Assembly (NCBI GenBank): GCA_934121905.1
Contig: CAKOVI010000001.1
Coordinates: 24,847 to 88,846, forward strand
Source of the DNA: an uncultured Clostridia bacterium
GTDB lineage: Bacteria > Bacillota > Clostridia > TANB77 > CAG-508
Length of the DNA stretch: 64,000 nt
Reading direction: 5' to 3'
Positions 1 to 49,295 of the stretch are shown piece by piece (within the stretch, counting starts at the first letter, position 1; the number at the start of each line of letters is the position of its first letter). A model generated the notes under the pieces. The model saw only the letters and a list, made by a program, of their open reading frames with translations, was not told the DNA's origin and made no database searches. Position numbers and translations under genes: made by a program.

Positions 1-357
1 TAGAATTTCATAATGTCAGTTGGTTTAATTTTGGTAATATAAAAATGTCCGAAATATGGTATAAGTCTTGTTTCTAACATTCTACAATATCGTTTGTATG
101 TTGAAGGAGCAAGTTCTTTTGAGCCATAATCTCTTTTCCATATTTCAGTAAATTCAGAAAATTTAAGAGATTTACCATCAATTACGAAACCATTTTGTAC
201 TTCAGTAACAAATTTTGCTAGTTCAACTTCTGCATCTTTTTTAGTTCCATGTACTGTTTTTCTGTGTATCATAGGTTTTCCGTTTAGGTCAAATCCTTCT
301 GATACTGTTAGCCTGTAACTATTTTTTCCTCTTTTTTCTATACTCCCAGCCATTACT
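1..357 (-). CDS. int: Tyrosine-type site-specific integrase, N-terminal part (gene continues off the left edge)
   Basis: The reverse-complement translation is MAGSIEKRGKNSYRLTVSEGFDLNGKPMIHRKTVHGTKKDAEVELAKF..., which is a typical phage/ICE integrase N-terminal SAM-like domain. The start codon is at 355-357 with an RBS (ggaggtg) upstream on the minus strand. Confidence 0.8.
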
Positions 358-595
358 TATTTCACCTCCTTTCAAGTATGCCTATGGTGGGAGGAGTACG
401 TGTATAATTGTTAACAACATTATTATACAACAATAGTTAACAAATTGCAATAGATTTCAAAAATAAACTTAAAAAATTTATAAATGTAATAAAATGTAAA
501 AAATGTCGAAAATTTGAAAGCTAAAATCCTTTGAAAATACTGGATTATTTACAGAAAATATGATATAATACGACAAATATATAGGAGGAATTTAC

Positions 596-1141
596 ATGAA
601 TATAATAGAATCAGAGATAAGACAAATTTTTGCATCAATAGTATGGAACCATAAAATTCATGAAAAACATAGTGATATTAATTCTTTTTGGTTTAATGTT
701 TTAGAATTTTGCAAGATATTATCTTCAGCAATTACTACATCAGGATTATTAACTTGCTTTTTTATTGATGAAGTTGCTTTAAAGATAATTACCACTGTTT
801 TTTCAGCTATATCTCTATTTATAAATACTTTTTATAAAACATATAATTTAAAAGAATCAAGAGATAGTCATAAATTAAGCGCATTAGAATTTTTACAATT
901 AAAAAATGAAACCATTTGTGTATTATCAGATATAAAATTAAATAAGATAGAATTGGATGAAGCTACTAAGAAGAGAGATGAGATATTATTAAAATATCAT
1001 AATATATGCAAGAAAAGCTTATCTACATGTGATAGAGCTGTAAAAAAAGCATCAAATGCTTTAAAAATACAAAAAGATAATACATTTTCAGATGAAGAAA
1101 TAGATAGCTATTTACCTGTAGAGCTTAGAAAGGGAAAATAA
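596..1141 (+). CDS. SLATT-like 2-TM effector protein
   Basis: 181 aa with two hydrophobic helices (FWFNVLEFCKILSSAITTSGLLTCFF and ALKIITTVFSAISLFINTFY) followed by a helical tail. Its stop overlaps the start of the downstream nucleotidyltransferase (TAAATG), and an RBS (aggagg) lies upstream. Confidence 0.55.
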   Translation: MNIIESEIRQIFASIVWNHKIHEKHSDINSFWFNVLEFCKILSSAITTSGLLTCFFIDEVALKIITTVFSAISLFINTFYKTYNLKESRDSHKLSALEFLQLKNETICVLSDIKLNKIELDEATKKRDEILLKYHNICKKSLSTCDRAVKKASNALKIQKDNTFSDEEIDSYLPVELRKGK

Positions 1142-2440
1142 ATGATTAAAGATGATTTTTGTGATTTCTGTAACAACATAAAACTAGATAATTTTGAAGA
1201 TATGAAAACAACAGTAAAAGGCATTACAAAAAAACTAAATAAACATTATTATGACATAGATGATGACGAATCTAATATGTATATTGTAGGTTCAGTTGGT
1301 AGAACTACAGCAATAAAAAATACAAGTGATTTGGACATACTTTTTAATCTACCTAAGAGTGTTTATGATAGAATAAATGATAATGATGGAAATAAACAAT
1401 CTCAATTATTACAAGAAGTAAAAAATGTATTGAAAGAAAAATATCCTAATACAGACTTAAAAGGTGATGGACAAGTTGTAGTAATAAACTTTACAAAATA
1501 CACAGTAGAATTAGTTCCAGGATTTAAGCAAAATGATGATTCACTTAAATATCCAGATACAAATGATGGAGGAAGCTGGAAGATTACAAATCCAATTCCA
1601 GAAATAGACGAATGTAAGAAAAAAGATGATGACACAAATGGAAATTTTACAAATATATGTCATATGCTTAGATCATGGAAAAACAAAAAAGGATTTAAAT
1701 TTAAAGGCTTATTAATTGACACTTTGACTAATAATTTCCTTGAAAAGAAGAAGGAATATCAAAATTGTGGATATGAAAATTATTTAAATCTAGTTAAAGA
1801 TATTTTTGAGTTTTTAAAGAATGAAGATAAAGATAAGAGTTATTGGTTTGCAATAGGAAGTAATCAAAAAATATATAATGATGATGGAGGAAAATTCGTA
1901 AAAAAAGCCACAAAAGCTTATAACAAAATTAAAGATTTAAATGAGGATTCTAAAAATTTAAATAAAGAATTAAGGAATCTTTTGGGAAAAGAATTTCCTA
2001 AAGCACAAAATGAGGAAGAAGAAAAAGAACAATACGCTTATGATCATACAGAAGAATTTATTGAAGATGAATATCCTGTTGATGTAGTATTAAATTTAAA
2101 ATTGGATTGTATAGTAACACAAGATGGATTCCGCCCAGCTAGTTTAAGGGATATGATAACAAATCATGTGCTTCTAAAGAGGGATAAAAAATTAGAATTT
2201 TACATAGTAAATAAAGCAGAAATTATGAATTATGGTATAGATAAAATTCTTTGGAAAGTAAAAAACGAAGGAGATTTAGCTAAACAAAAAAACGATATTA
2301 GGGGACAAATTTTAGAAACAAATAGTTATACACATACTGAATATTCTAAATTTGATGGTGACCATTATGTTGAAGCATATATAATAAAAAATGATGTATG
2401 TATAGCTAAAGGAAAAATTGATGTTCCAATAAGGGTTTAA
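1142..2440 (+). CDS. SMODS/CD-NTase-like Pol-beta superfamily nucleotidyltransferase with a C-terminal domain of unknown function
   Basis: It carries the GS-x9-DxD motif (GSVGRTTAIKNTSDLDILF) and a downstream acidic residue (TVELVP), which is the classical minimal nucleotidyltransferase signature. It is translationally coupled to the SLATT gene. Confidence 0.7.
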   Translation: MIKDDFCDFCNNIKLDNFEDMKTTVKGITKKLNKHYYDIDDDESNMYIVGSVGRTTAIKNTSDLDILFNLPKSVYDRINDNDGNKQSQLLQEVKNVLKEKYPNTDLKGDGQVVVINFTKYTVELVPGFKQNDDSLKYPDTNDGGSWKITNPIPEIDECKKKDDDTNGNFTNICHMLRSWKNKKGFKFKGLLIDTLTNNFLEKKKEYQNCGYENYLNLVKDIFEFLKNEDKDKSYWFAIGSNQKIYNDDGGKFVKKATKAYNKIKDLNEDSKNLNKELRNLLGKEFPKAQNEEEEKEQYAYDHTEEFIEDEYPVDVVLNLKLDCIVTQDGFRPASLRDMITNHVLLKRDKKLEFYIVNKAEIMNYGIDKILWKVKNEGDLAKQKNDIRGQILETNSYTHTEYSKFDGDHYVEAYIIKNDVCIAKGKIDVPIRV

Positions 2441-2461
2441 AAGAAAGCGAGAAAATATAAG

Positions 2462-3364
2462 ATGAATTTTGAATTAAATTTAATAGAGAATTCATATGAT
2501 TATATTAAAGAAACATTATACTATTATAAAAAGATAGGATATGGTGAAAGCCATGATGAAGATAGAAATTCTATAGAAGAAAAAAGAAAGTGGAAAACAA
2601 CATTTATATTATTGGTTCAAGCAATTGAATTACTATTAAAAGAAGCTCTGTTTAGAATTAACGAAAGTTTGATTTATGAAAATATTGATGAGAAAATTAG
2701 CGATAAAGCAAAAACTATAACATATTCGAAATCGATAGCAAGATTGCAAAATTTAAAGCCAAAATTGTTTTCACAAAATGAAACTGATTTATTGATTACT
2801 TGTGGTAATATAAGAAATAATTTTATTCATTTTAAAGTAAATGCTAATTCGATTGAAATAAAAAGAAAATATTGTAAGTTATTTGAGCTTTATATAAAAT
2901 TACACTATAGAATTTTTCACCATAAATATCAAAATGAAGAATATAAATATGTTATTGAGAATATTTTACATAATGCAAAGGATTTTGAGGTTTTTAGAGG
3001 AATTGAGTTTACTAAAAAACAATTAAAACAGTTTAAAGAGGATATTGAGGAAAATCAATACTATTCGTATATACTTACAAAAGATAATAATGCATATAAG
3101 AGAATAAAATATGGAGATGAAGACAAATTTTATAATTATAAGTTCAATACGAATGATTCATATTATTCAATTGATTGCAAGTACTGTGGCGATTGTGGAG
3201 CTAAAAAAGGAGAAATTCATCTAGATGGATGTGACTGGGAAATGTGTCCTATATGTGGGCATCAATTAATATCATGTGATTGTGAATGGGGTGAATATAT
3301 TTCTGATGACTATTTACTTGAAAATGATATAAGAGATATTATAGATTATGAAATGATTATATAA
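2462..3364 (+). CDS. HEPN-like protein (RNNFIH = Rx4H motif) with a C-terminal Cys-rich zinc ribbon
   Basis: The motif GNIRNNFIHF is present. The C-terminus is CKYCGDCGAKKGEIHLDGCDWEMCPICGHQLISCDCEW. It starts 22 bp after the nucleotidyltransferase gene on the same strand. Confidence 0.45.
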   Translation: MNFELNLIENSYDYIKETLYYYKKIGYGESHDEDRNSIEEKRKWKTTFILLVQAIELLLKEALFRINESLIYENIDEKISDKAKTITYSKSIARLQNLKPKLFSQNETDLLITCGNIRNNFIHFKVNANSIEIKRKYCKLFELYIKLHYRIFHHKYQNEEYKYVIENILHNAKDFEVFRGIEFTKKQLKQFKEDIEENQYYSYILTKDNNAYKRIKYGDEDKFYNYKFNTNDSYYSIDCKYCGDCGAKKGEIHLDGCDWEMCPICGHQLISCDCEWGEYISDDYLLENDIRDIIDYEMII

Positions 3365-3390
3365 ATAAGGAAAAGCAATAAACTTTTCCT

Positions 3391-4440
3391 TTATTTGTTT
3401 TCTTCCAACCATTTATCAAATTCTTTATAAGTTTTCTTTTCAGATCTAATGGAATCCATAAATTCCTTAGCTTGCTTTTTCCAATTTTCATAATCAATCT
3501 TATAAACTTCTATATCAGGATTACGGTTTACTAGCATTGCTTTTTTTGCATAAATCTTACGATATTTACCATAAACAATCTCATTTTCTTGTTTAATTCT
3601 TTGAGCAATTTGGTTTCCGATATCTCTACAAGTTTGTTTTCCTTTGTATAAATTATTACAGTAATTAATGCGTGCATTATCTGTTATAAAGTATTTACCA
3701 CAATTCTTACATTTTTTTATAAGATATTTATTATTAAGTACAAATTGAAACAATGTAACATATAAAATTCCATAAATATTGTCATTACTAGAACTATAAT
3801 CTGGTTCAACATCATAATCTGGAGCAGACTTAAAGAATTTGATTAAATCTTTTTCTGTAGATCCTTTAATACCAGATATTGTTCTAAAAGAAAAGCCTTG
3901 TGGCATAGAAAAGTAGTTATTTATAAATCTATCTAGCTTTTTAGCATGAGAGTTATAATAAATATAAAATCTTATTTTAGAAGTAAAATCTTTAATTTCT
4001 TCAATATTATTAATGTTAAATATATAATCAACAAATTCTGATAATAGTTTTTGACCACGTTTTGAGTCATTTTTTATTTCTTCAAAATATTTTTTAAATA
4101 ATTTTTTTACTTTATTAAAAGAATAAAGTTTATTTACTTCAAATTTATTTATATCATCTTCACCAGTATATATGATGTATGAAGTAAAAAACTTAGTAAA
4201 CCACATAAAACAATCATCATAATTATCAAAATTACAATTTAAAAAGTTAATAAGTTCAGTACAAAGTGTCTGAGTGGTAGTTGTAGTATTAATAGTAAAA
4301 TAACCTGTATTAATGTTTTTTAGATTATAATATTTTGGCTTAGATGATTTTGTTTTTGCATATAAAAATGCTTTATGTGTAAGTGTTTCGTTCTTTGAAA
4401 CAAATATACTAATAGCTTCATCAATTTTTAATTTGTTCAT
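3391..4440 (-). CDS. Hypothetical protein with a Cys cluster (CKNCGKYF...C..LYKGKQTCRD)
   Basis: 349-aa ORF with an RBS (ggagg) upstream on the minus strand. I recognise no domain. Confidence 0.5.
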   Translation of the reverse strand: MNKLKIDEAISIFVSKNETLTHKAFLYAKTKSSKPKYYNLKNINTGYFTINTTTTTQTLCTELINFLNCNFDNYDDCFMWFTKFFTSYIIYTGEDDINKFEVNKLYSFNKVKKLFKKYFEEIKNDSKRGQKLLSEFVDYIFNINNIEEIKDFTSKIRFYIYYNSHAKKLDRFINNYFSMPQGFSFRTISGIKGSTEKDLIKFFKSAPDYDVEPDYSSSNDNIYGILYVTLFQFVLNNKYLIKKCKNCGKYFITDNARINYCNNLYKGKQTCRDIGNQIAQRIKQENEIVYGKYRKIYAKKAMLVNRNPDIEVYKIDYENWKKQAKEFMDSIRSEKKTYKEFDKWLEENK

Positions 4441-4589
4441 AATTCCTCCATTAACAGTTTACGAAATTCAATAAAGTTAACCTGCTATCAAAATACACTA
4501 AAAAGTATTTACAAAGTTAACTACAAACAATATAATACAATTGTTAACAAAAGTCAATATTAAATTACAAAAAAACAGGAGGTGATATT

Positions 4590-4787
4590 ATGGAACTACA
4601 AAAGATTCAAAGAACAACACTAACGATGAAAGAAGCAAGTGGGTATTTAGGAATTTCTTATTGGTTAATTAATCAACTAGTAAGAAGAAAGCAAATACCA
4701 TGTTCTAAAGTTGGTGGAAAATATTTATTTAGAGTACAAGCTTTAGATGAATATTTATCAAAAATGGAACAAGAATCAATTGATTAG
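4590..4787 (+). CDS. xis: Excisionase/MerR-like helix-turn-helix DNA-binding protein (Xis-like)
   Basis: 65 aa with the motif MKEASGYLGISYWLINQLVRRKQIPCSKVGGKYLF, typical of the excisionase-family HTH. An RBS (aggagg) lies upstream. Confidence 0.7.
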   Translation: MELQKIQRTTLTMKEASGYLGISYWLINQLVRRKQIPCSKVGGKYLFRVQALDEYLSKMEQESID

Positions 4788-7081: not shown

Positions 7082-7170
7082 TTGTAAATATTTAGAAGTA
7101 CCTGTTGAGAAATTTGTCATTTTATGATATAAAATATAATAGAATTATTGTAAATATTCGAGGTGCAAAA

Positions 7171-8673
7171 ATGAAAGAAGAAGAGTTAATAAAATTAGAA
7201 AAAAAATTATGGGAATCTGCTGATAAAATGAGAGGGGCAGTTCCTGTTTCAGATTATAAATTTATAATATTAGGATTAATATTTTTAAAATATATTTCTG
7301 ATGCATTTGAAGAGAAATATCAAATCTTAGTAAAAGATGGTTATGGACTTGAAGAGGATAGGGATAGTTATGAGGCAGATAATGTGTTTTATGTTCCAGC
7401 TAGGGCTAGATGGGAATATTTAAATGCTCATTCTAAGGATCCTCATATAGGACAAATAATTGATGATGCATTGGAAGAAATAGAAAGAGAAAATCCATCT
7501 TTAAAAGGTGTTTTAGTTAAGGAATTTAATAGCCCAAATTATAGAAATGTTAATTTAGGAGAGATAATTGATTTATTTACTAATATAAAAATTGGAAGTA
7601 AAGAAGCACAAGATAAAGATATCTTGGGAAGAATATATGAATATTTCTTAGGACAATTTGCATCTAACGAATTGCAAAAAGGTGGAGAGTTCTATACACC
7701 TGCTTGCTTAGTTAGAACAATGGTTGAGATTCTTGAACCATATCAAGGTAGAATTTATGACCCTGCATGTGGTTCAGGAGGAATGTTTGTACAAAGTATA
7801 AAATTCATTCACAGACACAATGGTAATGCAAGAAATTTAACTATATATGGACAAGAAAAAAATCCAACAACCTGGAAATTAGCAAAGATGAATCTAGCTA
7901 TTAGAGGAATAAATAATGATGGATTAGGAAAGTTTGCAGACGATACATTTCATAACGATTTACACAAAGATTTAAAAGCAGATTTTGTATTAGCAAACCC
8001 TCCATTCAATATTAGTGACTGGGGACAAGAAAAATTATTAGATGATCCTAGATGGAAATATGGAATACCACCAAAAGGAAATGCTAACTTTGCTTGGGTC
8101 GAGCATATGGTATCAAAATTATCTATGAATGGCAAAGCTGCAATAATACTTGCAAATGGTTCTTTATCAGCAGGGGGACAAGAAGAAGTAATCAGAAAAA
8201 ATTTAATAGAAGCAGATTTGGTTGATTGTATATTGTCAATGCCATCAAATTTATTCTATACAGTTACAATACCTTGTAGTATATGGATTTTAAATAGAAA
8301 CAAGAAACAAAAAGGAAAAACATTGTTTATAGATGCAAGAAATTTTGGAACAATGGTAACAAGAAAATTAAGAGAACTAAATGAAGACGATATATCTAAA
8401 ATTGTAGATACATATCATAATTTCCAAAACAATCAAAATTATGAAGATGTAGCAGGATACTGTAAAGTATCTACAATAAAAGAAATAGAAGAAAACAATT
8501 ATGTCCTTACACCAGGTAGATATGTAGGAACAGAAGAACAAGAAGACGATGGAATACCTTTTGAAGAAAAAATGAAAACAATAACAACTGAATTAAAAGC
8601 ACAATTTGAAGAGTCTCATAAGTTGGAAGAAAAAATTAAGAAGAACTTGGAGGCTATTGGGTATGGAATATAA
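7171..8673 (+). CDS. hsdM: Type I restriction-modification system methyltransferase subunit
   Basis: N6-adenine methyltransferase motif IV VLANPPFN, SAM-binding region DPACGSGGMF and an HsdM N-terminal domain. The ATG at 7171 follows the RBS gaggtg. Confidence 0.9.
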   Translation: MKEEELIKLEKKLWESADKMRGAVPVSDYKFIILGLIFLKYISDAFEEKYQILVKDGYGLEEDRDSYEADNVFYVPARARWEYLNAHSKDPHIGQIIDDALEEIERENPSLKGVLVKEFNSPNYRNVNLGEIIDLFTNIKIGSKEAQDKDILGRIYEYFLGQFASNELQKGGEFYTPACLVRTMVEILEPYQGRIYDPACGSGGMFVQSIKFIHRHNGNARNLTIYGQEKNPTTWKLAKMNLAIRGINNDGLGKFADDTFHNDLHKDLKADFVLANPPFNISDWGQEKLLDDPRWKYGIPPKGNANFAWVEHMVSKLSMNGKAAIILANGSLSAGGQEEVIRKNLIEADLVDCILSMPSNLFYTVTIPCSIWILNRNKKQKGKTLFIDARNFGTMVTRKLRELNEDDISKIVDTYHNFQNNQNYEDVAGYCKVSTIKEIEENNYVLTPGRYVGTEEQEDDGIPFEEKMKTITTELKAQFEESHKLEEKIKKNLEAIGYGI

Positions 8674-9844
8674 AAAATTAGAGGATATAATAGAATTTAA
8701 TCCAACTGAAACATTAAAAAAAGGAACTGTATCTAAAAAAATTCCAATGGACAAATTGGGCGTGTTTTCAAAATATATAAATTCTTTTGATATAGAAAAA
8801 TACAATGGAGGTATGAAATTTAGAAATGGAGATACCTTATTGGCAAGAATAACACCATGCTTGGAAAATGGAAAAACATCAAAAGTTACAATTTTAGATG
8901 AAGAAGAAGTTGGTTTTGGTTCTACAGAATATATTGTTATGAGAAGTAAAAAGAATATTTCAGATGAAGATTTTATTTTTTATCTTGCAATAAGTCCAAA
9001 ATTTAGAGAAATTGCAATTAAATCTATGACTGGAACATCAGGAAGACAGAGAGTACAATTAGATGTTGTAAAAAATACTGAAATGTTAATACCAAGCTAT
9101 GAAGAGCAGATTAAAATTGGTAAAGTTTTGTCTAGTATAGATAAAAGAATAGAGCTGAATAATCAGATAAATGATAATTTGTCAGAACAATTAAAGCAAA
9201 TATTTAATAATAAATTCTATGATAAAATCCAAAATAATGATTGCAGTGAATTTAAAGAATATATTTTATATGATGTATTAGATGTTATTGACAATAGAGG
9301 TAAAACACCTAAATTAGTTGAAGTTAGTAATTATCCTATTATTGATGTAAGAGCTATATCAGGAGAGAATAGAATTATAGACTATAAACAATGCCAAAAA
9401 TATGTGGATGATGAAGTTTATAATACGTTTTTTAGAAGTGGACATCCTAAAATAAATGATATTTTAATTTCAACAGTTGGTAGTCTTGCAGAAATGAAAA
9501 TATATATGGAAAACAAAGGTACTATAGCTCAGAATGTTGTAGCATTAAGAAGCAAATATGATTATCCTATGTATATATATCAATATTTAAAAGCAATAAA
9601 AAATGATTTAATTTCTTATAATATAGGAAGTGTACAGCCAAGTATTAAAGTAACACAATTTATGAAACATAATATATATATTCCTAAAGATAAAGAACTA
9701 TACGAATTTGAAAATATTGCAAAATTATATACCGATAAGATGTTTAATATTTCAAAGGAAAATGAAACATTAGAACAATTAAGAGATACACTATTACCAA
9801 AACTCATGAATGGAGAAATAGATCTAGATAAAATAGAAATATAA
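8663..9844 (+). CDS. hsdS: Type I restriction-modification system specificity subunit (two target-recognition domains)
   Basis: It overlaps the hsdM stop. Two repeated target-recognition halves are separated by conserved helical spacer motifs (IPSYEEQIKIGKVLSSID... and LRDTLLPKLMNGEI). Confidence 0.85.
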   Translation: MEYKKLEDIIEFNPTETLKKGTVSKKIPMDKLGVFSKYINSFDIEKYNGGMKFRNGDTLLARITPCLENGKTSKVTILDEEEVGFGSTEYIVMRSKKNISDEDFIFYLAISPKFREIAIKSMTGTSGRQRVQLDVVKNTEMLIPSYEEQIKIGKVLSSIDKRIELNNQINDNLSEQLKQIFNNKFYDKIQNNDCSEFKEYILYDVLDVIDNRGKTPKLVEVSNYPIIDVRAISGENRIIDYKQCQKYVDDEVYNTFFRSGHPKINDILISTVGSLAEMKIYMENKGTIAQNVVALRSKYDYPMYIYQYLKAIKNDLISYNIGSVQPSIKVTQFMKHNIYIPKDKELYEFENIAKLYTDKMFNISKENETLEQLRDTLLPKLMNGEIDLDKIEI

Positions 9845-9883
9845 TCATACAAATTATGATTTGCATAAAAAAGGAGGAATACT

Positions 9884-10258
9884 ATGAATTCAAATTATGA
9901 AAAGAAAAAACATCAACTTACTGGAGATATTTTATGGAAAATAAACGATATTGATTTAGCTATAACAGATGGTGGATCATCAATTGTAAAAGATTTTATA
10001 GATGAAAATAGATATGATGATTATACTTTATCTATATATGATGAAATAACTAAAAATACAATTGAAATTGATGCAAAAATAAATGAAATGCCTATAATTG
10101 TTTCAATGGTATATAAAGTAGAACATGCAACACCGATGACTTTTATAGGTGTAAATAAATTAACAAAGTCATATGTTGTTGGTATGAATTTGACAAAGGG
10201 GCATATAGAATTTGGAAGCTATAGGTATATAAATGGAAAACTAAACAAAGTTGAGTAA
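9884..10258 (+). CDS. Hypothetical small protein embedded between hsdS and hsdR
   Basis: 124-aa ORF with a strong RBS (aaaggagg). Confidence 0.5.
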   Translation: MNSNYEKKKHQLTGDILWKINDIDLAITDGGSSIVKDFIDENRYDDYTLSIYDEITKNTIEIDAKINEMPIIVSMVYKVEHATPMTFIGVNKLTKSYVVGMNLTKGHIEFGSYRYINGKLNKVE

Positions 10259-10280
10259 ACTATAATTTAGGGGGCAAATT

Positions 10281-13200
10281 ATGTTTGATGAAGAAACACT
10301 AGAAAATATAACAATGGAAATGCTACAAAATCTAGAATATGAATGTATAAATGGATATGAAATGGAACGTACAGACTTTTCTAAAGTATTGTTAGAAGAA
10401 GATCTCTTTGATGTAATTGAAAGAATGAATAAAGAAATTGAATTTGAACAGATACAAGAAGTTATAAAAACAATTAGAAATTTAGACAACAACAATACTA
10501 TATTAAACAACAAACAATTTACTAAATATTTACTAGAGGGAATTTCTGTACCGATTCAAGAAGATGGAGAAACCAAATATAAAACTATTAAAATAATAGA
10601 TTTTGAAAATATCCAAAATAATATATTTAAAGCAATTAACCAATATACAATTATTGAACATAGTGAAAAAAGACCAGACATAATTATATTTATAAATGGT
10701 ATGCCTTTAGTTGTTGTTGAATTAAAATCAACAGTAAGAGAAGATGTTAGGTTAATTGATGGATATAATCAATTAAAAGGATATCAAGAAGTACATATAC
10801 CATCACTATTCTATTATAACCAATTTATGATTTTAAGTGATGGAGTACAAGCAAGAGCAGGAACTATTACAAGTCCATGGAGTAGATTCTCAGAATGGAA
10901 AAAAGTAGAAGACACAGATGAAGTATTAGAGAATATGCCTACTCATAAAACATTATTTAATGGAATGCTTAGAAAAGATAGATTATTAGATATTATAAGT
11001 AATTTCATATTGTGGAGTGAAGATAGTAAAATCCTATCAGCATATCACCAATATTTTGGAGTTAAGAAAGCTATAACCAGTACAGAAAATGCAATAGATA
11101 ACAAAACGGGAAAAGCTGGATTACTTTGGCATACACAAGGAAGTGGAAAGAGCTTCTCAATGGTATTTTATACTGGTAATATGATAAAAGTATTAAATAA
11201 TCCAAGTATAGTGGTTGTAACAGATAGAAATGATTTAGACAATCAGTTATTTACAACATTCGCAAAATGCTCTGAATATTTAAAACAAGAACCAGTACAA
11301 ATTGAAAATAGACAAGATTTAAACGAAAAATTAGAAGGAAGAAAATCTGGTGGAATATTTTTTACTACATTACAGAAATTTGAAGAAGAAACAGGAGTAT
11401 TTAGCCAAAGAGATGATATTTTAGTTTTAGTAGATGAAGCTCATAGAAGCCATTATGGATTAGATGCAACAATAAAATTCGATAAAGCTAAAATGGAAGC
11501 ATATAAAAAATATGGAACAGCTAAGTATTTGCATGATGCTTTCCCAAATGCAACATATATTGGATTTACAGGAACGCCTGTTGAAACAAAGGACAGGTCA
11601 ACAACAAATGTATTTGGAAATATAATAGATACTTATGATATGACACAAGCAATTATGGATGGTGCAACGGTGCCAATTATGTATGAATCAAGAATGGCAA
11701 GAGTTGGACTAAATCAAAAGATATTAGATGAGATAGATGATTACTACAATATGCTTGAAACAGAAGAAGGTATTGATGACTATAAAATAGCAGAATCTAA
11801 AAAAGCAATGGCTACAATGAAACAAATAATAGAAGATCCAGATAGACTAGAAATGATAGTTAAAGATATTATAAAGCATTATGAGGAAATAGAAACAAGT
11901 GTGGCTAATAAAGCAATGGTTGTAGCATATTCAAGACAATCTGCATTTACAATGTATAACAAATTCTTAGAACTTAGACCAGAATGGAAAAACAAAGTCA
12001 ATATGATAATAACATCTAATAATAAAGATGATGAAGAAATGCAAAAAGCAATAGGTTCTAAGAAAGATAAAAAGCAATTAGAAGTAGATTTTAAAGATAT
12101 GGAGTCTAGCTTCAAAATTGCAATAGTTGTAGATATGTGGTTAACAGGATTTGATGTGCCTGGACTTGGAACAATGTATGTGGACAAACCTATGAAAGCT
12201 CATAATTTAATGCAAGCAATTGCAAGGGTAAACAGAGTTTATAAAGATAAAACTGGTGGTTTAATTGTTGATTACATAGGACTAAAAAGATGGTTGCTAG
12301 ATGCATTGAAAACATATACAAAGAGAGACCAAGGCAAGATTGTAGATAATAGTGAATTAGTAAAAGTTTTAAATGATAAAGTAGAACTAATAAGAGATTT
12401 ATTTAAAGGATTCTACTATGGACACTTTGCTACAACAACAGATAGTGATAAATACGAAATAATAATGGCAGGTGCAAACAGGATGCTAGAAACAGAAGAA
12501 AAGAAAAAAGCATTTATGAAATATAGTTATGATGTAAAAAGTTTGTATGCATTATGTACAGGAGCTTTATCACAAGAATTAAAAGATGAAATATTATTTT
12601 TCATAGCTGTAAGATCATTTATATCAAAATTAAGTGGAGATAAAATAGACGTTAAAGAGATAAATGATAATGTAGCAAAAATGTTAGAAAGAGCAATACA
12701 AGATGATGAAATGCTACAAATAGGTGAAGTACATAACAGCAATCAATTAGCGCTATTAAGTAATGAGATTTTAAATAAGTTAGCAAAAATGCAGAAGAAA
12801 AACATTGCAGTTGAGGTATTAAATAGAGCATTAAAAGAGTATGTAAATCAAATAGGGAGACAAAATGTTGTTATGATGGAAAAGTTCTCAACAAAGTTTC
12901 AAAAAATTGCAGCAACATATAATGAGAGGACAAGTGTAGAAGATATACAAAAAATAATTGAAGAATTAATAAACTTAAAAAATGAAATTGAAGAAGAATT
13001 AAAAGCAGGAAATGAATTTAATTTGTCATCAGAAGAAAAAGCATTCTTTGATGCGTTAGGTGATGATCCAGAAGTTAAAGAACTAATGAAAGATGAAATC
13101 CTAGTTCAAATAGCAAAAGAACTTGTAGAAACGGTTAATAGTAATATGACTATAGATTGGGATATTAGAAAAGATGCAAGAGCCAAAATGAGAATTGAAA

Positions 13201-13307
13201 TTAAGAAGCTTTTAATTAAATATAATTATCCACCTAACAAAAGTGAAAAAGCAGTTCAAACTGTTATAAGACAAGCTGAGTTAAAATGTAAAGAGATGAT
13301 AGGATAA
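10281..13307 (+). CDS. hsdR: Type I restriction enzyme R subunit (SF2 helicase/endonuclease)
   Basis: 1008 aa with Walker A LWHTQGSGKS, DEAH box VLVDEAHRS, helicase motif VI QAIARVNR and an N-terminal HsdR_N-type nuclease region. Confidence 0.9.
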   Translation: MFDEETLENITMEMLQNLEYECINGYEMERTDFSKVLLEEDLFDVIERMNKEIEFEQIQEVIKTIRNLDNNNTILNNKQFTKYLLEGISVPIQEDGETKYKTIKIIDFENIQNNIFKAINQYTIIEHSEKRPDIIIFINGMPLVVVELKSTVREDVRLIDGYNQLKGYQEVHIPSLFYYNQFMILSDGVQARAGTITSPWSRFSEWKKVEDTDEVLENMPTHKTLFNGMLRKDRLLDIISNFILWSEDSKILSAYHQYFGVKKAITSTENAIDNKTGKAGLLWHTQGSGKSFSMVFYTGNMIKVLNNPSIVVVTDRNDLDNQLFTTFAKCSEYLKQEPVQIENRQDLNEKLEGRKSGGIFFTTLQKFEEETGVFSQRDDILVLVDEAHRSHYGLDATIKFDKAKMEAYKKYGTAKYLHDAFPNATYIGFTGTPVETKDRSTTNVFGNIIDTYDMTQAIMDGATVPIMYESRMARVGLNQKILDEIDDYYNMLETEEGIDDYKIAESKKAMATMKQIIEDPDRLEMIVKDIIKHYEEIETSVANKAMVVAYSRQSAFTMYNKFLELRPEWKNKVNMIITSNNKDDEEMQKAIGSKKDKKQLEVDFKDMESSFKIAIVVDMWLTGFDVPGLGTMYVDKPMKAHNLMQAIARVNRVYKDKTGGLIVDYIGLKRWLLDALKTYTKRDQGKIVDNSELVKVLNDKVELIRDLFKGFYYGHFATTTDSDKYEIIMAGANRMLETEEKKKAFMKYSYDVKSLYALCTGALSQELKDEILFFIAVRSFISKLSGDKIDVKEINDNVAKMLERAIQDDEMLQIGEVHNSNQLALLSNEILNKLAKMQKKNIAVEVLNRALKEYVNQIGRQNVVMMEKFSTKFQKIAATYNERTSVEDIQKIIEELINLKNEIEEELKAGNEFNLSSEEKAFFDALGDDPEVKELMKDEILVQIAKELVETVNSNMTIDWDIRKDARAKMRIEIKKLLIKYNYPPNKSEKAVQTVIRQAELKCKEMIG

Positions 13308-14171
13308 ATGAATAATGAAATAAAGGATGTTTTTGAGGATATAAACAATATATTTATAAACAAATTACAAGAAGCTCGAGAAAAGACAAATGATTCTATA
13401 GAAATTGAATTATTCAATGATTGTATTGATACTTATAAACGTGCATATAGGCTAGTAGATAATAATAGATTATTGGATGGAATAGTTCTAACAAGGAATG
13501 CATTTGAATTAATGATGATGCTATTTGGAATTAGAATAGATGCAAATGTAAGAAAAGAATATTGTAAAGAAGATAGTTATGAGTGTTATCTTGAAAGAAG
13601 AAAGATAAATAAAAAAGCAAAGGATTATTTATCACAAAGTTATTTAAGAAAAATAATATTAAAAAAATATGAGAACATAGAAGAAGATTATAACAAAATA
13701 TATAATGTCTTATCTAAATTTGCTCATCCAACAATTCATAGGAATATGCTAAGATTTTTTGAAAGAGAAAAAACAGATGTCGCTTTATTATATCTTAATG
13801 TAATAATGGTTTTACCAATTTTATTTTTAGAAATACTTTATGAAGAAAATATAATAGTTGATGAAACTTTTCGAGATTTAGCAATATTTAAATATATTAT
13901 AGAAAAGCTTACTTTAATTTATTTTTACAATTATGTGGATAAAGATAAACTAAAAGAGGCAAATAAATATGCATTTTTAGATATTAATAAAGATTATTAT
14001 AATAAGATGGAAGATATAATAAAAAAAGAGCTCAAAGAAATTGAAAAAGAATCAATAGATAATCAAGAAAAATATAAACAAGCAATAGAAAAAGTTTTGT
14101 CAAAAGTTGAATATTATAATATTGCTAAAAAATTAAAAGATTTAAAGCTAATTAATGGAGAGAAAGAATGA
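13308..14171 (+). CDS. Hypothetical protein directly coupled to the hsdR stop (possible Abi-like accessory gene)
   Basis: 287 aa. Its start overlaps the hsdR stop (TAAATG). No confident domain. Confidence 0.45.
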   Translation: MNNEIKDVFEDINNIFINKLQEAREKTNDSIEIELFNDCIDTYKRAYRLVDNNRLLDGIVLTRNAFELMMMLFGIRIDANVRKEYCKEDSYECYLERRKINKKAKDYLSQSYLRKIILKKYENIEEDYNKIYNVLSKFAHPTIHRNMLRFFEREKTDVALLYLNVIMVLPILFLEILYEENIIVDETFRDLAIFKYIIEKLTLIYFYNYVDKDKLKEANKYAFLDINKDYYNKMEDIIKKELKEIEKESIDNQEKYKQAIEKVLSKVEYYNIAKKLKDLKLINGEKE

Positions 14172-14897: not shown

Positions 14898-16133
14898 ATG
14901 TTAATAAGATTTAGTTTTAAAAATTTCAAATCTTTTAAAAATGAAAATTGTTTAGATATGGAAGCAACATCACTAAAAGAACATGAATATAATGTTGCTA
15001 AAATTGATAATGGTGAATATTTAAAAGTATCTGCAATTTATGGCGCTAATGCTAGTGGAAAAACTAATGTGTTACAGGCTTTTGATTATATGAAAAAGAG
15101 AATATTAGTAAGTGATGACTCTAAAAAGAATTCTCCAATAGATGAAGAAAATGTATATAGCTTTATGATAAATAATGATCCAATTGCTTTAGAAGTAGAA
15201 ATATTAGCCAAAAACAATAAAATATATAAGTATGGTTTTGAAGTTTTAAAAGATACAATAATTTCAGAGTGGCTATTTGAAAAAAGAGTAAATAAATTTT
15301 ATTCTATTTTTGAAAGAGAGAATAATAATGTATCAATGAAACCTAATAAAATTTCAGATTTAGTAAATATAGATGAAAGAACATTATTCTTAAATATATA
15401 TAGCAAAATAGATAGAAATAACGAAGATTTTAGTAATGTATATGATTGGTTTGTAAACAGCACATATTTAGATTTAGGTAATCCTAATTTTGAAAGATTT
15501 ATTAATAATAGAGTTTCTTTAAAAATATTAAGTGATGAAAATTATAAAAAAGAATTATTAAAATTCATAAAAACTTTTGATTCTGGAATCGAAGGAATAA
15601 AAACCACGCCAGATTTAATTGAAGCTGTAAAAAGCAATAACGGAATAATAGACATTGAAGTTATTCATAAAGGAGAAAAAGGAGAAGTGAAAGCATTACC
15701 ATTTTATTTGGAATCTAATGGTACTAGAAAAATGTTCCATTTATTTGATTTCTTTATGGATGCATTAAAAAATGGTATGGTATTATTTGTAGATGAATTA
15801 GATGCAAAATTACATCCGCTATTAACAAGATATATTATTAATTTATTCCACAATAGTGATACAAATAAAGGTAATGGTCAGTTAATATATTCAACACATG
15901 ATACAGTAAATTTAAATAAAGAAACATTTAGAAGAGATGAAATTTGGTTTGCAGAAAAGGATAAAGATGGTATTTCAGAGATATATGCATTATCTGATTA
16001 TATACTAGAAGATGATAAGAATGCAGGTAAAAAAGTAAGAAACGATGCAACATACAATAAAGATTATTTAACTGGAAGATATGGTGCTATTCCAGTATTA
16101 GAAGAATTCGAAATAGATTATGAAAAAAAATAA
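14898..16133 (+). CDS. AAA_21/ABC-type ATPase of an AbiL-like (AbiLi) abortive-infection pair
   Basis: Walker A IYGANASGKTN, Walker B VLFVDELDAKLHP and the motif STHD. It overlaps the downstream RloB-like gene. Confidence 0.65.
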   Translation: MLIRFSFKNFKSFKNENCLDMEATSLKEHEYNVAKIDNGEYLKVSAIYGANASGKTNVLQAFDYMKKRILVSDDSKKNSPIDEENVYSFMINNDPIALEVEILAKNNKIYKYGFEVLKDTIISEWLFEKRVNKFYSIFERENNNVSMKPNKISDLVNIDERTLFLNIYSKIDRNNEDFSNVYDWFVNSTYLDLGNPNFERFINNRVSLKILSDENYKKELLKFIKTFDSGIEGIKTTPDLIEAVKSNNGIIDIEVIHKGEKGEVKALPFYLESNGTRKMFHLFDFFMDALKNGMVLFVDELDAKLHPLLTRYIINLFHNSDTNKGNGQLIYSTHDTVNLNKETFRRDEIWFAEKDKDGISEIYALSDYILEDDKNAGKKVRNDATYNKDYLTGRYGAIPVLEEFEIDYEKK

Positions 16134-16761
16134 TATTTCAAGGAAAGACAGATTAAAAAGTAAAAGGCAAGCACCAGCTAATTACTTGATTGTGTGTGAA
16201 GGAAAGAAAACAGAACCTAATTACTTTAATGGACTAAAAAGAAAAATCAATGAAAGGTATGGAAATAAGGTAGATGTTTTAATTCCGAATATTGATGTAA
16301 AAGGAACAGGAATGAATACTACATCTTTAGTAAAGTATACTCAAAAAACAGTTAACCATGCAAATAAGGTATATGGACAAGTCTGGGTAGTATTCGATAA
16401 AGATGATTATAACGATGAACAATTTGATTCTGCAATAAAAAACTGTGATTACAATGTTGCTTGGTCTAATCCAAACTTTGAACTTTGGTTATTAGCACAT
16501 TTTAAGAAAGTGAATAGATATATTTCAAAAGATGATGTTTTACAAGAACTTAGCAAAGAATTTCAGAAAAAAGGTTTAGGTGATTATACTAAAAACGATA
16601 CAAATATATTTGATAAGGTTACAAGTGAGGGAAAGCTACATACAGCAATAAAAAATTGTGAATATATGGAAAAATTAAATAAAGATGGACAAGCATCACA
16701 AAGAAATCCAATGACTAAAGTTTATAAAATAGTTGATGGATTAAAAGAGTATTTAGAATAA
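16120..16761 (+). CDS. RloB-like/TOPRIM protein (AbiLii-like partner)
   Basis: LIVCEGKKTEPNYF matches the RloB family N-terminus, and VVFDKDD supplies the TOPRIM acidic motif. It is coupled to the upstream ATPase. Confidence 0.65.
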   Translation: MKKNNISRKDRLKSKRQAPANYLIVCEGKKTEPNYFNGLKRKINERYGNKVDVLIPNIDVKGTGMNTTSLVKYTQKTVNHANKVYGQVWVVFDKDDYNDEQFDSAIKNCDYNVAWSNPNFELWLLAHFKKVNRYISKDDVLQELSKEFQKKGLGDYTKNDTNIFDKVTSEGKLHTAIKNCEYMEKLNKDGQASQRNPMTKVYKIVDGLKEYLE

Positions 16762-16900
16762 GGTTACAAATGAAAAGCAAAGTATGAAAGTAATTAAAAA
16801 TTACAGGATTATTTTGCTTTTTTGATAATAAATTACAAGTTTCGACAAAATTTTTGTAAATCCTATGATATATAAATATAAATATGAAAGGAGATATTAT

Positions 16901-18745
16901 ATGTGGTTAGATAATGCGAGCAAATTGGATATGCTGTTTTATGAACCTTATGCTGATTTAATAAAAGAGATAATTGAGGATGGCGAATATAATCCGCTTA
17001 CTATAGGAATTTTTGGTTTATGGGGAGCTGGAAAATCTACTTTATTAAATTTAATAAAAGATTCTATTAATAAAGATAATATAGAATGCATTGAAATAAA
17101 TGCATGGATGTTTGAAGGATACGAAGATGCTAAAACTGCTCTAATGGAATCATTGCTAAAAACAATGGAAAGTAATGAGAAAATTATAAAAAAGGCTGGA
17201 ACAGAAATAAAAGCACTTTTAAAAAGGGTAAACTGGTTAAAGTTAGGAACAAAAGCTATATCGTATGCAGCACCTTTAATTGCAAGTATTGGTATGGCAA
17301 ACCCAATTCCTCTTTTATTAAATGTTGCTAATGAGACTGTAAATGACAAAGAAAAGCTTTCTAAAGCCATAAGTAATGCAGCAGATGGAGTAGATAACAT
17401 AAGGGAAAATTACCTAAATGAAAAAGAAAAAAGTACTGTAGAAAATATAAGACAATTTAAAACAGAATTTGAATCTATGCTAAAAAAGACAGAAATTAAT
17501 AATTTGGTTGTACTAATAGATGATTTGGATAGATGCAATCCTGAGAGAATAATAGAGACATTAGAAGCTATAAAACTTTTTTTATCTGTTGAGAATACAA
17601 CATTTATAATTGCGGCAGATGAAAATGTTATTCAATATGCTATAAAGAAGAAATATCCTAAGACAAATGATAGTGAGCCTGATATTTCGAAGGAATATAT
17701 TGAAAAAATAATACAATTGCCAATATACATACCAGAGTTATCATCAAAAGATATAGAAAACTATTTATTATTACTTGTATGTCAAAAATACTTAACAAAA
17801 GAAAGTTTTAAAATTTTACTAGATGATATATACAATAGCAAAATTCTAATAAGAGAGAAAGAGATAACATTAAGTGAATTACATGGACTTATCAATAAAA
17901 TAGCAAATTTAAAGTATAAAAATGATTCAAAGTTTGAATTCGAAAAAGATATAGAAATTATAAATAAAATAAAAAGTATAATTTCGTATACATTAAAGGG
18001 TAATCCTAGACAAGCAAAGAGATTTTTAAATACATTTATAACAAAGAAAAAATTAGCTGAGAATTATTTTGGAGAAGATATTGATATAGAGATTCTTGCG
18101 AAATTATTAGTTTTACAAAAATTAGATATTAGGTTATTTAAACTTTTAAATGAATGGAATAAAAATTTTACAACTAAAAATGAAGAATTTGAAAATTTAT
18201 ATAAAGCATTTGAAAAAGATGATTTATCTGCGTACAAACTTTGGGATACAATACAAATAAAAAAATGGCTGAAATGCGAACCAATTGATTTAGCAAAAGA
18301 AAGATTAGATAAGTACTTTTACTTGACAAGAGAATTATTAGTTGAAAAGCCGAACGAAAACAATATTGATACAGAGACAAGAGAAATATTATCAGAAATT
18401 GGAAAATCAAAGGCTTATAACATAGACAATATAATAGATAAATTTAAAGAGTTAGAACCTAGTCAAATTAAAGAAGGATTTAATATATTATTACCGCAAA
18501 TAAAAGATGGAAAATTAGAAAATTTTATAGTAAAGACACTATTTGTAAAATTCCCTGAATATAGAAAATCTATTAGTGCTGAAATAAAAAATGGAGAATA
18601 TGCAATAGGTATAGCAGATATTCCATTATATAAAACAATGTATAATAATGATAAAGTAGAAATAAAAGCTTGCTTAGCAAATTTAAAAGCAAATGGTAGA
18701 ATATCAGAAAAATTATATGAAAAAATTGTAGAAGGAGATGAATAA
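16901..18745 (+). CDS. qatA: KAP-family P-loop NTPase, QatA
   Basis: GIFGLWGAGKSTLL is the KAP GxWGxGKS P-loop, and LIDDLDRCNPERI is the KAP Walker B/DRC motif. It is the first gene of the four-gene Qat arrangement. Confidence 0.8.
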   Translation: MWLDNASKLDMLFYEPYADLIKEIIEDGEYNPLTIGIFGLWGAGKSTLLNLIKDSINKDNIECIEINAWMFEGYEDAKTALMESLLKTMESNEKIIKKAGTEIKALLKRVNWLKLGTKAISYAAPLIASIGMANPIPLLLNVANETVNDKEKLSKAISNAADGVDNIRENYLNEKEKSTVENIRQFKTEFESMLKKTEINNLVVLIDDLDRCNPERIIETLEAIKLFLSVENTTFIIAADENVIQYAIKKKYPKTNDSEPDISKEYIEKIIQLPIYIPELSSKDIENYLLLLVCQKYLTKESFKILLDDIYNSKILIREKEITLSELHGLINKIANLKYKNDSKFEFEKDIEIINKIKSIISYTLKGNPRQAKRFLNTFITKKKLAENYFGEDIDIEILAKLLVLQKLDIRLFKLLNEWNKNFTTKNEEFENLYKAFEKDDLSAYKLWDTIQIKKWLKCEPIDLAKERLDKYFYLTRELLVEKPNENNIDTETREILSEIGKSKAYNIDNIIDKFKELEPSQIKEGFNILLPQIKDGKLENFIVKTLFVKFPEYRKSISAEIKNGEYAIGIADIPLYKTMYNNDKVEIKACLANLKANGRISEKLYEKIVEGDE

Positions 18746-18748
18746 AAA

Positions 18749-19432
18749 ATGGGAACATCTAAAGGATATATAATGCCAACAAAGAAAAATTGGACAGATG
18801 CAAAAAGAGCTGCAACGCAACTTTCCAAAAATGATAATTTAGATAATAGAATAAAGCTAGCAAATAAATATGCTACAGCAATGAAACAAGATTTAACTAC
18901 AAGTTCAGATAGAACAAGTACAGTAATAGGAAAAGTATTAGGATTAGGCCAAAGTTTAAAAAATCAAGGTATAGAAAAAACATTAAAAGATTTAGGCAAA
19001 GAGTATTTAATGGATAAGTCACCTGAGGAAATATTAGATATATTAATGGGAGAATATTCAGAATATGGTAACACAAAAGATAATTATTTAGCAAGTGATG
19101 CCTTAAGTATTGCATTAAAAGAATTAGAGATAAACACGATAGAAGATTTATCAAATATATCTATAGATACATTATTAAAAGAAATATTAATAAATTATGT
19201 AGATTTAAATTTTAAATTTAGATTTGAAGAACAAATCATTAAAAAATCTCCCACAACAGCAAATAAAATAGTAGAAGATATGAGCGGATATATAAAAAAC
19301 AAATTAAGAGAGGAATTAAATGTCGTAGATATGGAAAAAATTGATTTTAATAATTTAAATAATAATAAAATAATAGATGATAAAATTAAAGAAGCCTATG
19401 ATATATTTAAAGATTTATATGGAGAGGAGTAG
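18749..19432 (+). CDS. qatB: QatB (small protein of unknown function)
   Basis: 227 aa located between the KAP NTPase and QueC-like genes, as in QatABCD systems. Confidence 0.6.
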   Translation: MGTSKGYIMPTKKNWTDAKRAATQLSKNDNLDNRIKLANKYATAMKQDLTTSSDRTSTVIGKVLGLGQSLKNQGIEKTLKDLGKEYLMDKSPEEILDILMGEYSEYGNTKDNYLASDALSIALKELEINTIEDLSNISIDTLLKEILINYVDLNFKFRFEEQIIKKSPTTANKIVEDMSGYIKNKLREELNVVDMEKIDFNNLNNNKIIDDKIKEAYDIFKDLYGEE

Positions 19433-19436
19433 TAGT

Positions 19437-20819
19437 ATGAGAATATGGATAAATAAAAACAAAATACTAGAAGAACAAGATGAAAAATTTTATAATGCCT
19501 ATGAATTTTCAATAAAAAGAAATGAATACAGTACAATGTATACACATATGGATTATGTATGGAGACAATTTGGTATACAAAAGTTAGATTCCATATATGA
19601 AGATTTATTTATAGTAGGGATGTCTGTATTTAGCATAGATAAGAGAATTTCCAGAACTTTATTTGATGATAATTGGACAAGAAGCTTTGAAGTATCTATT
19701 CCAGTATTAGAATTAAATAAATGGAATAGTGTAAAAGATAAATTAAATGAGACATTAACGTTTTTAACTGGAGATATTTGGAACATAGAATTTAGAAAAA
19801 CTGAAGAAATTTACATGGAATGTAATAGTAGTTTGAATAGAAGAAACAGACTAAATAAATCTGATTATAATGCTGTATCGCTTTTTTCAGGAGGGTTAGA
19901 TTCATTTTGTGGAGCTATAGAATTAATGGAACAAGGTAATTCATTATGCTTGGTTGGACATAATGAATATCCAAAATTGCGTGTCAAACAGGAAGAATTG
20001 GCACAAGCAATTAATAATGAGTATCCATCGCAAAAGTGTAAATTTATAAGCTTTTCTGCAAATTCATATGCACCTGCTAATAAAGATGGAAAGATAGAAA
20101 AGAATGAAAATACATCGAGAGGTAGATCTTTTTTATTTTTATGTATGGCAATCACTATAGCTGGGATTATAGGAGATGAAGCTTTTGTATATATACCAGA
20201 AAATGGATTCATAGGATTAAATATCCCTTTAACTAATAGTAGAAAAGGGAGTTGTAGTACAAGAACAACGCATCCATATTTTATAGGTAATTTTAATGAA
20301 ATATTAGCGGGAATTGGAATAAAAAATAAAGTTACAAATATATTTGCTTATAAAAGTAAAAGAGAAATTGTTAATAATGTAAAAGATAATATTATATTTA
20401 AACAACATGCAAAAGATACTATATCTTGTTCACATCCATGTATAACCAGATATAACAAAAATGGCGATAAAGAATATCCTGTTAATTGTGGATATTGTTA
20501 TCCGTGTTTAATAAGAAAAAGCTCTCTTATTGATGCGAAAAATATTAGCGAACATTATACATATCCTATTATAGATTCAGACTTTTTAAGAAGTTTTGAA
20601 GGAAGAGATATTACAAATGATACTAGAGCTGTTTTTAGTAGTATATATAGATATAATAATATAGACGAAAAAGAACTTTCTAGATTAATTAAATGTTCAG
20701 GAAAGTTGATAAATAGTGATATTGAAAAATTCAAAAATGTATACAAAAAAACAATGAATGATTTAATTGAAATATTTTCAAAAGATCAAGAGATGAAAAA
20801 ATATATAGGAATGGAGTAA
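19437..20819 (+). CDS. qatC: QueC-like PP-loop ATPase, QatC
   Basis: SLFSGGLDSF is the SGGxDS PP-loop. C-terminal Cys cluster CGYCYPCLIRK. The ATG at 19437 follows the RBS ggagaggag. Confidence 0.8.
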   Translation: MRIWINKNKILEEQDEKFYNAYEFSIKRNEYSTMYTHMDYVWRQFGIQKLDSIYEDLFIVGMSVFSIDKRISRTLFDDNWTRSFEVSIPVLELNKWNSVKDKLNETLTFLTGDIWNIEFRKTEEIYMECNSSLNRRNRLNKSDYNAVSLFSGGLDSFCGAIELMEQGNSLCLVGHNEYPKLRVKQEELAQAINNEYPSQKCKFISFSANSYAPANKDGKIEKNENTSRGRSFLFLCMAITIAGIIGDEAFVYIPENGFIGLNIPLTNSRKGSCSTRTTHPYFIGNFNEILAGIGIKNKVTNIFAYKSKREIVNNVKDNIIFKQHAKDTISCSHPCITRYNKNGDKEYPVNCGYCYPCLIRKSSLIDAKNISEHYTYPIIDSDFLRSFEGRDITNDTRAVFSSIYRYNNIDEKELSRLIKCSGKLINSDIEKFKNVYKKTMNDLIEIFSKDQEMKKYIGME

Positions 20820-20820
20820 T

Positions 20821-39419: not shown

Positions 39420-47532
<8,113 letters not shown>

Positions 47533-49120: not shown

Positions 49121-49295
49121 TTAATTTTAGTCCTTTCTTAATAATTTTTGATAAGTGTATTATAATATTTTATGAGAAAATTCTGCAAGGTGTGATTTCT
49201 CTATAAATTGTATGAAATATTAATTTTAACTTGTGTGACAAATGTTTATTTGCTATAATGTAGAAAATCTAAAAGATAGGGAGAAAACATACGCA

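Follow-up and report, generated by a model that had tools for sequence, protein, structure and literature searches.

The locus examined here lies near the left end of a 64,000-nucleotide (nt) stretch of contig CAKOVI010000001.1 from an uncultured Clostridia bacterium (27% GC), referred to below as the window and numbered from its first letter. It consists of three consecutive genes on the + strand: gene 1 (596-1141, 181 amino acids (aa)) encodes a two-transmembrane SLATT_4 protein; gene 2 (1142-2440, 432 aa) encodes a CD-NTase, the cyclase of a cyclic oligonucleotide-based antiphage signalling system (CBASS); and gene 3 (2462-3364, 300 aa) encodes a stand-alone HEPN protein related to the PADLOC model PDC-S64. 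A Shine-Dalgarno sequence, AGGAGG, can be read at 583..588 on the + strand, 7 nt 5' of the SLATT start codon, and the SLATT stop codon abuts the start codon of the cyclase (GGA AAA TAA ATG), while a 21-nt spacer (2441-2461) separates the cyclase from gene 3. A bidirectional intrinsic terminator at 3367..3391, common to gene 3 and a convergent DUF6076 gene, is the sole terminator-like site on either strand within 300-4700, and none was found between the cyclase and gene 3. Promoter-like hexamers, including those at 514-559, were not enriched over shuffled sequence (41 vs 38.7), and no promoter is claimed on that account. Near-identical copies of the locus are held by metagenome-assembled genomes of human-gut Clostridia, and megablast of positions 400-4600 against plasmid and phage records returned no match. 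An original prediction, made from the sequence, had described the three genes as a minimal CBASS-like trio with an unusual gene order; its three open reading frames (ORFs), the TAAATG coupling of the first two and its domain calls (SLATT, SMODS nucleotidyltransferase, HEPN Rx4H and a zinc-binding motif) are all exact. The locus is, however, very probably not one system but two separate defence modules lying end to end, a Type I CBASS (596-2440) and a HEPN gene (2462-3364).

Gene 1 matches Pfam SLATT_4 over profile positions 2-165 of 165 (E 6.7e-40), NCBIfam SLATT_4 (1.4e-29) and the PADLOC '2TM effector' model PDLC00696 (6.4e-51). It has hydrophobic stretches at aa 33-55 and aa 60-79 (mean Kyte-Doolittle values of 1.2 and 1.7), which a 4-residue loop separates and which are predicted to form the two-transmembrane hairpin of a SLATT effector within the SLATT domain, in agreement with the earlier view of the 181-aa product as a membrane protein. 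Gene 2 matches Pfam SMODS at 1.8e-39 (aa 3-161, nt 1148-1624), so that both of the expected families were found by profile search at E-values well beyond chance. A C-terminal extension of about 180 aa had been predicted to have no recognisable family; it is really a domain of ~130 aa that matches Pfam AGS_C (PF18134) at 1.6e-38 (aa 302-431, nt 2045-2434, profile positions 2-129 of 129), which places gene 2 in the CD-NTase-AGS-C fusion subgroup. The SMODS, SLATT and AGS-C domains were reportedly defined by Burroughs et al. in 2015. A single PADLOC CBASS cyclase model, PDLC00796, spans aa 2-431 (2.9e-161), and the phage protein family phrog_17525 matches the protein over its full length (9.7e-109).

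The predicted GS...DxD motif of the cyclase, GSVGRTTAIKNTSDLDILF, is present at aa 50-68. As a single sequence the cyclase found no relative among solved structures; a profile built from 17 relatives aligns with the CD-NTase structures 6p8u/6p82 (E 5e-9), and in this alignment G50 S51, D63, D65 and E123 fall on the catalytic positions of those structures. All of these residues are invariant across the 17 relatives, the third acidic catalytic position being Glu (E123). Homologues of the cyclase number more than 3,200, and 120 of the 120 listed carry both SMODS and AGS_C in proteins of ~414-446 aa. The NCBIfam models CBASS_cyclase_a and CBASS_cyclase_b scored 85 and 55 bits against a cut-off of 200, so the cyclase is not their equivalog.

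The gene order of the pair was compared across 80 metagenomic loci around cyclase relatives of 45-99% identity, 79 of which have a cyclase ORF. In 66 of the 79, SLATT is the ORF directly upstream of the cyclase (64 scored automatically, together with L041 and L065, where the ORF call had shifted the cyclase start); in 4 it lies downstream, and the pairing is therefore kept in 70/79 overall. SLATT was not found in the other 9 of the 79, although at least three of these (L057, L087 and L102) are cut off by the end of the contig just before the cyclase. Effector-first is thus the rule in this cyclase subfamily and not the non-standard arrangement that it had been taken for. Neither Cap2/Cap3, HORMA/TRIP13 nor type IV accessory families are present among the flanking genes (integrase, HEPN, DUF6076, HTH_17 and replication organiser), and the locus combines a cyclase active site with an adjacent effector in the same operon and no type II-IV accessory genes, as in Type I CBASS. 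The CD-NTase-AGS-C fusion occurs in ~40% of Type I CBASS operons, its AGS-C domain has been described as Ig-like, and SLATT-effector CBASS operons have been shown to defend E. coli against phage (bioRxiv 10.1101/2023.05.21.541620). Given that AGS-C is a known domain, that the cyclase model is matched at full length and that the effector-first order is normal, genes 1 and 2 are, as judged from their sequences, a standard two-gene Type I CBASS of an architecture already catalogued.

All steps of CBASS action beyond domain identity are drawn here from studied CBASS systems. By this analogy, the CD-NTase would stay inactive until infection, with the Ig-like AGS-C domain probably tuning which phage cue is sensed; the activated enzyme would then make a cyclic oligonucleotide, and this would switch on the translationally coupled SLATT_4 effector, leading to membrane damage and aborted infection.

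Gene 3 comprises a HEPN domain at aa ~1-155 (nt 2462-2926), which contains the predicted RNNFIH motif (R118x4H123, nt 2813-2830), and a C-terminal Cys7His cluster at aa 242-274 (nt 3185-3283). An alignment of 32 homologues, extending down to 25% identity, shows that neither motif is a chance occurrence: Q53, E56, L57, L58, K60, R94, R118, H123 and R214 are invariant, as are the eight metal ligands C242, C245, H253, C257, C262, C265, C272 and C274 and, within the cluster region, D258, E260 and P263. The prediction of a metal-binding cluster therefore stands, whereas a 'Cys4 ribbon' does not, as eight invariant ligands are enough for two zinc sites. The AlphaFold2 model of gene 3 is confident (pLDDT 92.2, pTM 0.84), and its four-helix fold together with the conserved Rx4-6H motif identifies the N-terminal part as a HEPN domain. 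The best fold matches are the HEPN toxins of HEPN/MNT systems (7ae2, 5yep and 8xdj), and the HEPN domain of Csm6 was also matched; the C-terminal half (~145 aa) has no match among solved structures, and a sequence profile of gene 3 searched against solved structures gave chance matches only. No CARF, SAVED or other nucleotide-sensor domain was recognised in the protein. By analogy with other Rx4-6H HEPN proteins, the product of gene 3 most likely functions as an RNase in dimeric or higher oligomeric form.

The fold matches to 7ae2, 5yep and 8xdj, and the position of a pol-beta-superfamily nucleotidyltransferase directly upstream of gene 3, are features of a toxin-antitoxin pair of the MNT-HEPN type, in which a pol-beta-fold enzyme neutralises a HEPN toxin by nucleotidylylation. 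Such a pair is extremely improbable here, given that the enzyme encoded upstream is a CD-NTase over its full length and already has a SLATT partner, that most gene-3 homologues lack any nucleotidyltransferase neighbour and have no conserved neighbour at all, and that gene 3, at 300 aa with its added domain, exceeds twice the length of the HEPN toxins associated with MNTs (119-143 aa for those matched here). A dedicated MNT-HEPN pair was also rejected on the neighbourhoods themselves, as no NTP_transf_2-type neighbour was seen either in a set of 20 flanking proteins or, at 10 more loci, among the genes called there.

The distribution of gene 3 was determined from a genome scan with a profile of 21 closer homologues, which found 24 loci. 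A CBASS (SLATT and cyclase) is present at only four of these (L001-L004), all with gene-3 identity of at least 92%, and neither tblastn nor profile HMMs detected a SLATT or cyclase at the other 20. Gene 3 also lies behind a cyclase at L115 (89% gene-3 identity) and L114 (78%), and CBASS is present at 6/34 gene-3 loci overall. Viewed from the cyclase, gene 3 follows in 8 of the 61 loci that have at least 950 bp downstream, and in all eight the cyclase identity is at least 87%. SLATT_4 and cyclase occur without gene 3 at cyclase identities of 88% (L105-107), 83% (L108) and 76% (L109), and gene-3 homologues occur without CBASS at identities of 86% (L119), 76% (L006), 75% (L110-113) and 74% (L116-118). 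The three genes are therefore not co-conserved across genomes, as a functional trio would require; even in close relatives either module, gene 3 or the CBASS pair, is found without the other, and the CBASS assignment holds for genes 1 and 2 but not for a trio that includes gene 3.

An all-against-all BLAST of gene-3 neighbours revealed no conserved partner, and the Pfam matches of 20 immediate neighbours belong to unrelated families: Fic/DOC, MazG-like, Schlafen-type helicase, KilA-N and DUF5655, as well as cytidine deaminase, quinolinate phosphoribosyltransferase, ATPase subunit D and LysM. An upstream gene of ~250-315 aa, seen at many gene-3 loci, was considered as a partner and discarded because the proteins are mutually unrelated. 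Likewise, clustering of 59 ORFs from the position behind the cyclase gave 35 clusters, the largest of which other than gene 3 has six members, so that no different third gene is general there.

A sister element, L108, separates the two modules cleanly. It has the same backbone as the window, namely integrase, SLATT_4, cyclase, opposite-strand DUF6076, HTH_17, Phage_rep_org_N and a DnaC-like gene, but lacks a 948-bp gene-3 cassette (2442..3389, + strand). In a blastn comparison, homology between the two ends at 2441, at the cyclase stop codon, and resumes at 3390, giving a clean indel with 948 bp in the window versus 53 bp with a terminator hairpin in L108. Outside CBASS contexts, gene-3 DNA homology is limited to the ORF; at those loci the gene comes with a separate intergenic region and a Shine-Dalgarno sequence that is strong. 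Gene 3 is thus an independently mobile single-gene module that is separate from the CBASS pair, and its adjacency to CBASS reflects the stacking of defence genes in an island and not a functional requirement. This explanation draws on what was established for these loci, which is to say domain identities, the HEPN fold, motif conservation, gene-order statistics, the independent distribution of the modules and the boundaries of the indel.

Several points weigh against a complete separation of the modules, or against a detailed reading of either. In the window, gene 3 sits 21 nt behind the cyclase with a weak Shine-Dalgarno sequence and no terminator between them, and for these reasons its co-transcription with the CBASS genes is probable in this lineage. 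The order SLATT-cyclase-gene 3 is still kept at L114 and L115, where identities go down to 78% for gene 3 and 85% for the cyclase, and the linkage is therefore not a one-off. As the C-terminal half of the modelled gene-3 protein has no known fold, comparison leaves room for ligand binding by it. The transmembrane segments of gene 1 are predicted solely from hydropathy and family models, the cyclase is assigned by its matches at the level of CD-NTase, above clade and product, and the biochemical activities, triggers and anti-phage function proposed for all three proteins are taken by analogy from other systems.

The first of these points bear on a three-component variant of CBASS, in which the HEPN protein would be a second effector or a regulator whose C-terminal zinc domain responds to the cyclic nucleotide and activates it, in the manner that Csm6/Csx1 is activated by cyclic oligoadenylates. 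The tight spacing and probable co-transcription, the recurrence of the trio down to 78% gene-3 identity, the Csm6 HEPN domain among the fold matches and a C-terminal domain with no assigned function would all be accommodated by such a variant, which is nevertheless very unlikely beside the independent occurrence of gene 3 and the CBASS pair. A bolder form of the idea, that a HEPN/zinc-cluster protein was recruited as a second CBASS output in this lineage and that its C-terminal domain is a new sensor of cyclic nucleotides or of the state of the cyclase, is slightly more improbable still; if it were true, a membrane effector and an RNase would both be under the control of one CD-NTase. The two-module explanation carries a wider caution, in that genes of a defence island are not a functional unit merely for being tightly spaced and probably co-transcribed.

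The family to which gene 3 belongs was defined further by model and profile searches. The PADLOC model PDC-S64 is matched by all 32 of the 32 family members (best E 6.4e-24) and the PADLOC DUF3644 model by 23 of them. Gene 3 of the window matches PDC-S64 at 2.5e-14, over only positions 2-224 of the 339-position profile, and its sequence would accordingly place it in a related branch of PDC-S64 with a different C-terminus. A word-indexed search recovered 69 proteins of the family, none with an unmarked Pfam match, and an exhaustive profile search returned 6,441 cluster representatives at E<=1e-3 and 98 at E<=1e-30, many of the relatives having the HEPN part in common only. A literature search on PDC-S64 found no paper mentioning it.

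The candidacy of gene 3 for a role in defence is suggested by its PDC-S64 match, its setting in a defence island and a precedent in HepS, a single-HEPN abortive-infection protein from prophage Gifsy-1 that senses a phage tail-tip protein and cleaves the tRNA anticodon (PMC13043305). By analogy, the HEPN RNase of gene 3 would be held inactive until a trigger is sensed, most plausibly by the C-terminal half with its two predicted zinc sites. That the family represents a new abortive-infection system consisting of one HEPN protein, in which the two-zinc domain senses a phage component directly, is a tentative but serious possibility, and a likelier one than a second CBASS output. Alternatively, gene 3 could serve outside defence, as a maintenance or RNA-processing factor of a mobile element, or as a HEPN protein that has lost catalysis and is carried as cargo. 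PDC-S64 being a computational candidate only, and some homologues adjoining housekeeping-type genes (ATPase subunit D and quinolinate phosphoribosyltransferase), such a role is conceivable; it is unlikely, because the Rx4H catalytic motif is invariant, because the gene recurs in defence-rich contexts (this island; AAA_15/21 ATPase with methylase, which some homologues adjoin; Fic; and MazG-like with Schlafen-type helicase), and because its patchy presence in close relatives and variable neighbours are typical of defence genes.

At L110 (5952-8708), and also at L111-L113, a gene-3 homologue of 75% identity is followed by a 253-aa protein, a 637-aa AAA_15/AAA_21 ATPase, DUF1810 and a DNA methylase; this region resembles another defence island, and the 253-aa protein and ATPase may constitute a system of their own. 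A Schlafen-group-3 helicase gene is present at L108 (10284-11299), L007 (4774-7883) and L105 (6512-8479), and in L108 and L007 a MazG-like gene stands ahead of it. It recurs in different elements near relatives of CBASS and of gene 3 alike, and may be defence cargo that this one element family carries repeatedly.

The locus occupies the integrase end of an integrative element, with Phage_int_SAM_3 at 353..1 running off the window, and the integrase is followed by a defence island of ~21 kb in which type I restriction-modification, AbiL and QatABCD lie beside CBASS and HEPN. The DUF6076 gene that converges on gene 3 (3391-4440, - strand; 2e-12) encodes a protein with a Cys-rich C-terminal half, is kept next to CBASS in L001-L004 and L108, and belongs to the backbone of the element. 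The type I restriction-modification genes hsdM, hsdS and hsdR occupy 7105-13307, with a 124-aa ORF without assignment between hsdS and hsdR (9884-10258) and a 287-aa ORF directly after hsdR (13308-14171) that has a weak, sub-threshold DUF5677 match (4.8e-4). The two-gene AbiL system (14898-16761) is made up of a 411-aa AAA_21 ATPase that matches PADLOC AbiLi (5.8e-89) and an overlapping 213-aa gene that matches AbiLii (1.9e-28). QatABCD is complete (16865-21540), comprising the KAP NTPase QatA (4.6e-97), a weakly matched QatB (2.3e-7), QatC (1.7e-99) and the TatD-type DNase QatD (8.2e-57). A choloylglycine (bile salt) hydrolase family gene at 22853-23827 (9.9e-108) is consistent with a gut-dwelling host and, as it lies ~1.3 kb beyond QatD, the right end of the island is probably between ~21.5 and 22.8 kb.

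Further into the window, the gene for PolC (56281-60733) is split into two overlapping ORFs of 941 and 549 aa; the frame shifts after ...VGSRGSV, with the expected continuation in the +1 frame, which fits one extra base, a C at ~59062. The split reflects either a mistake in the assembly or the frameshifting of an essential gene. A 2,552-aa protein encoded at 39420-47078 has a glucoamylase-like domain and, towards its C-terminus, GH94 supersandwich and catalytic domains; no Pfam family was matched at E<=1e-5 by its first ~1,150 aa, at the N-terminus. The same threshold gave no Pfam match for six ORFs of 310-772 aa, at 28269-29672, 30387-32705, 34411-36354, 47744-49120 (- strand), 49242-50174 and 50556-52097.

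Taken as a whole, the original observation is confirmed and its interpretation is supported in part, with the domain calls proving right and the claims of novelty not. The CBASS pair is a further member of a very large catalogued architecture, to which it adds nothing new. The item of value is the gene-3 family, in which an invariant HEPN motif is fused to a confidently modelled domain that lacks any structural counterpart and has two predicted zinc sites, and which is catalogued solely as a computational candidate (PDC-S64-related). If gene 3 defends, the known HEPN defence systems would gain one that consists of a single gene, and possibly a new sensor domain with it.

Among known systems, the CBASS pair most resembles the lactococcal plasmid Type I CBASS pUCCL631_167/168, in which a 190-aa SLATT gene (PF18186) is numbered directly before a 408-aa NTase/AGS-C gene (PF18134), so that both the SLATT and CD-NTase-AGS-C pairing and the order are shared (PMC11381338). 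The EcCdnF04/F05-SLATT6 operons likewise share the SLATT effector and CD-NTase-AGS-C (Richmond-Buccola et al., bioRxiv 10.1101/2023.05.21.541620), and the known SLATT/AGS-C systems and this pair have in common that no Cap2/3 or HORMA/TRIP13 accessory genes are present. The pair differs from them in its diverged sequence, in an E123 that is invariant in its 17 relatives, in its 27% GC gut Clostridia host, and in the HEPN gene appended downstream.

For gene 3, the comparison is with several HEPN groups. The HEPN/MNT toxins (7ae2 and 5yep) have a conserved MNT partner, which is absent from gene-3 loci, and the Csm6/Csx1 RNases have a CARF domain, in place of which gene 3 has its C-terminal half of ~145 aa. 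HepS has weak structural similarity to gene 3 (matched chain 218 aa) and no detected sequence relationship, and it is not known to have a Cys/His zinc cluster; by this analogy, it is a functional precedent for gene 3 and not a relative. Beside the PDC-S64/DUF3644 (PF12358) HEPN-like family, gene 3 behaves as a single-gene module that lacks a conserved partner, whereas its Cys7His C-terminus is not common to the PDC-S64 model and would set this branch apart.

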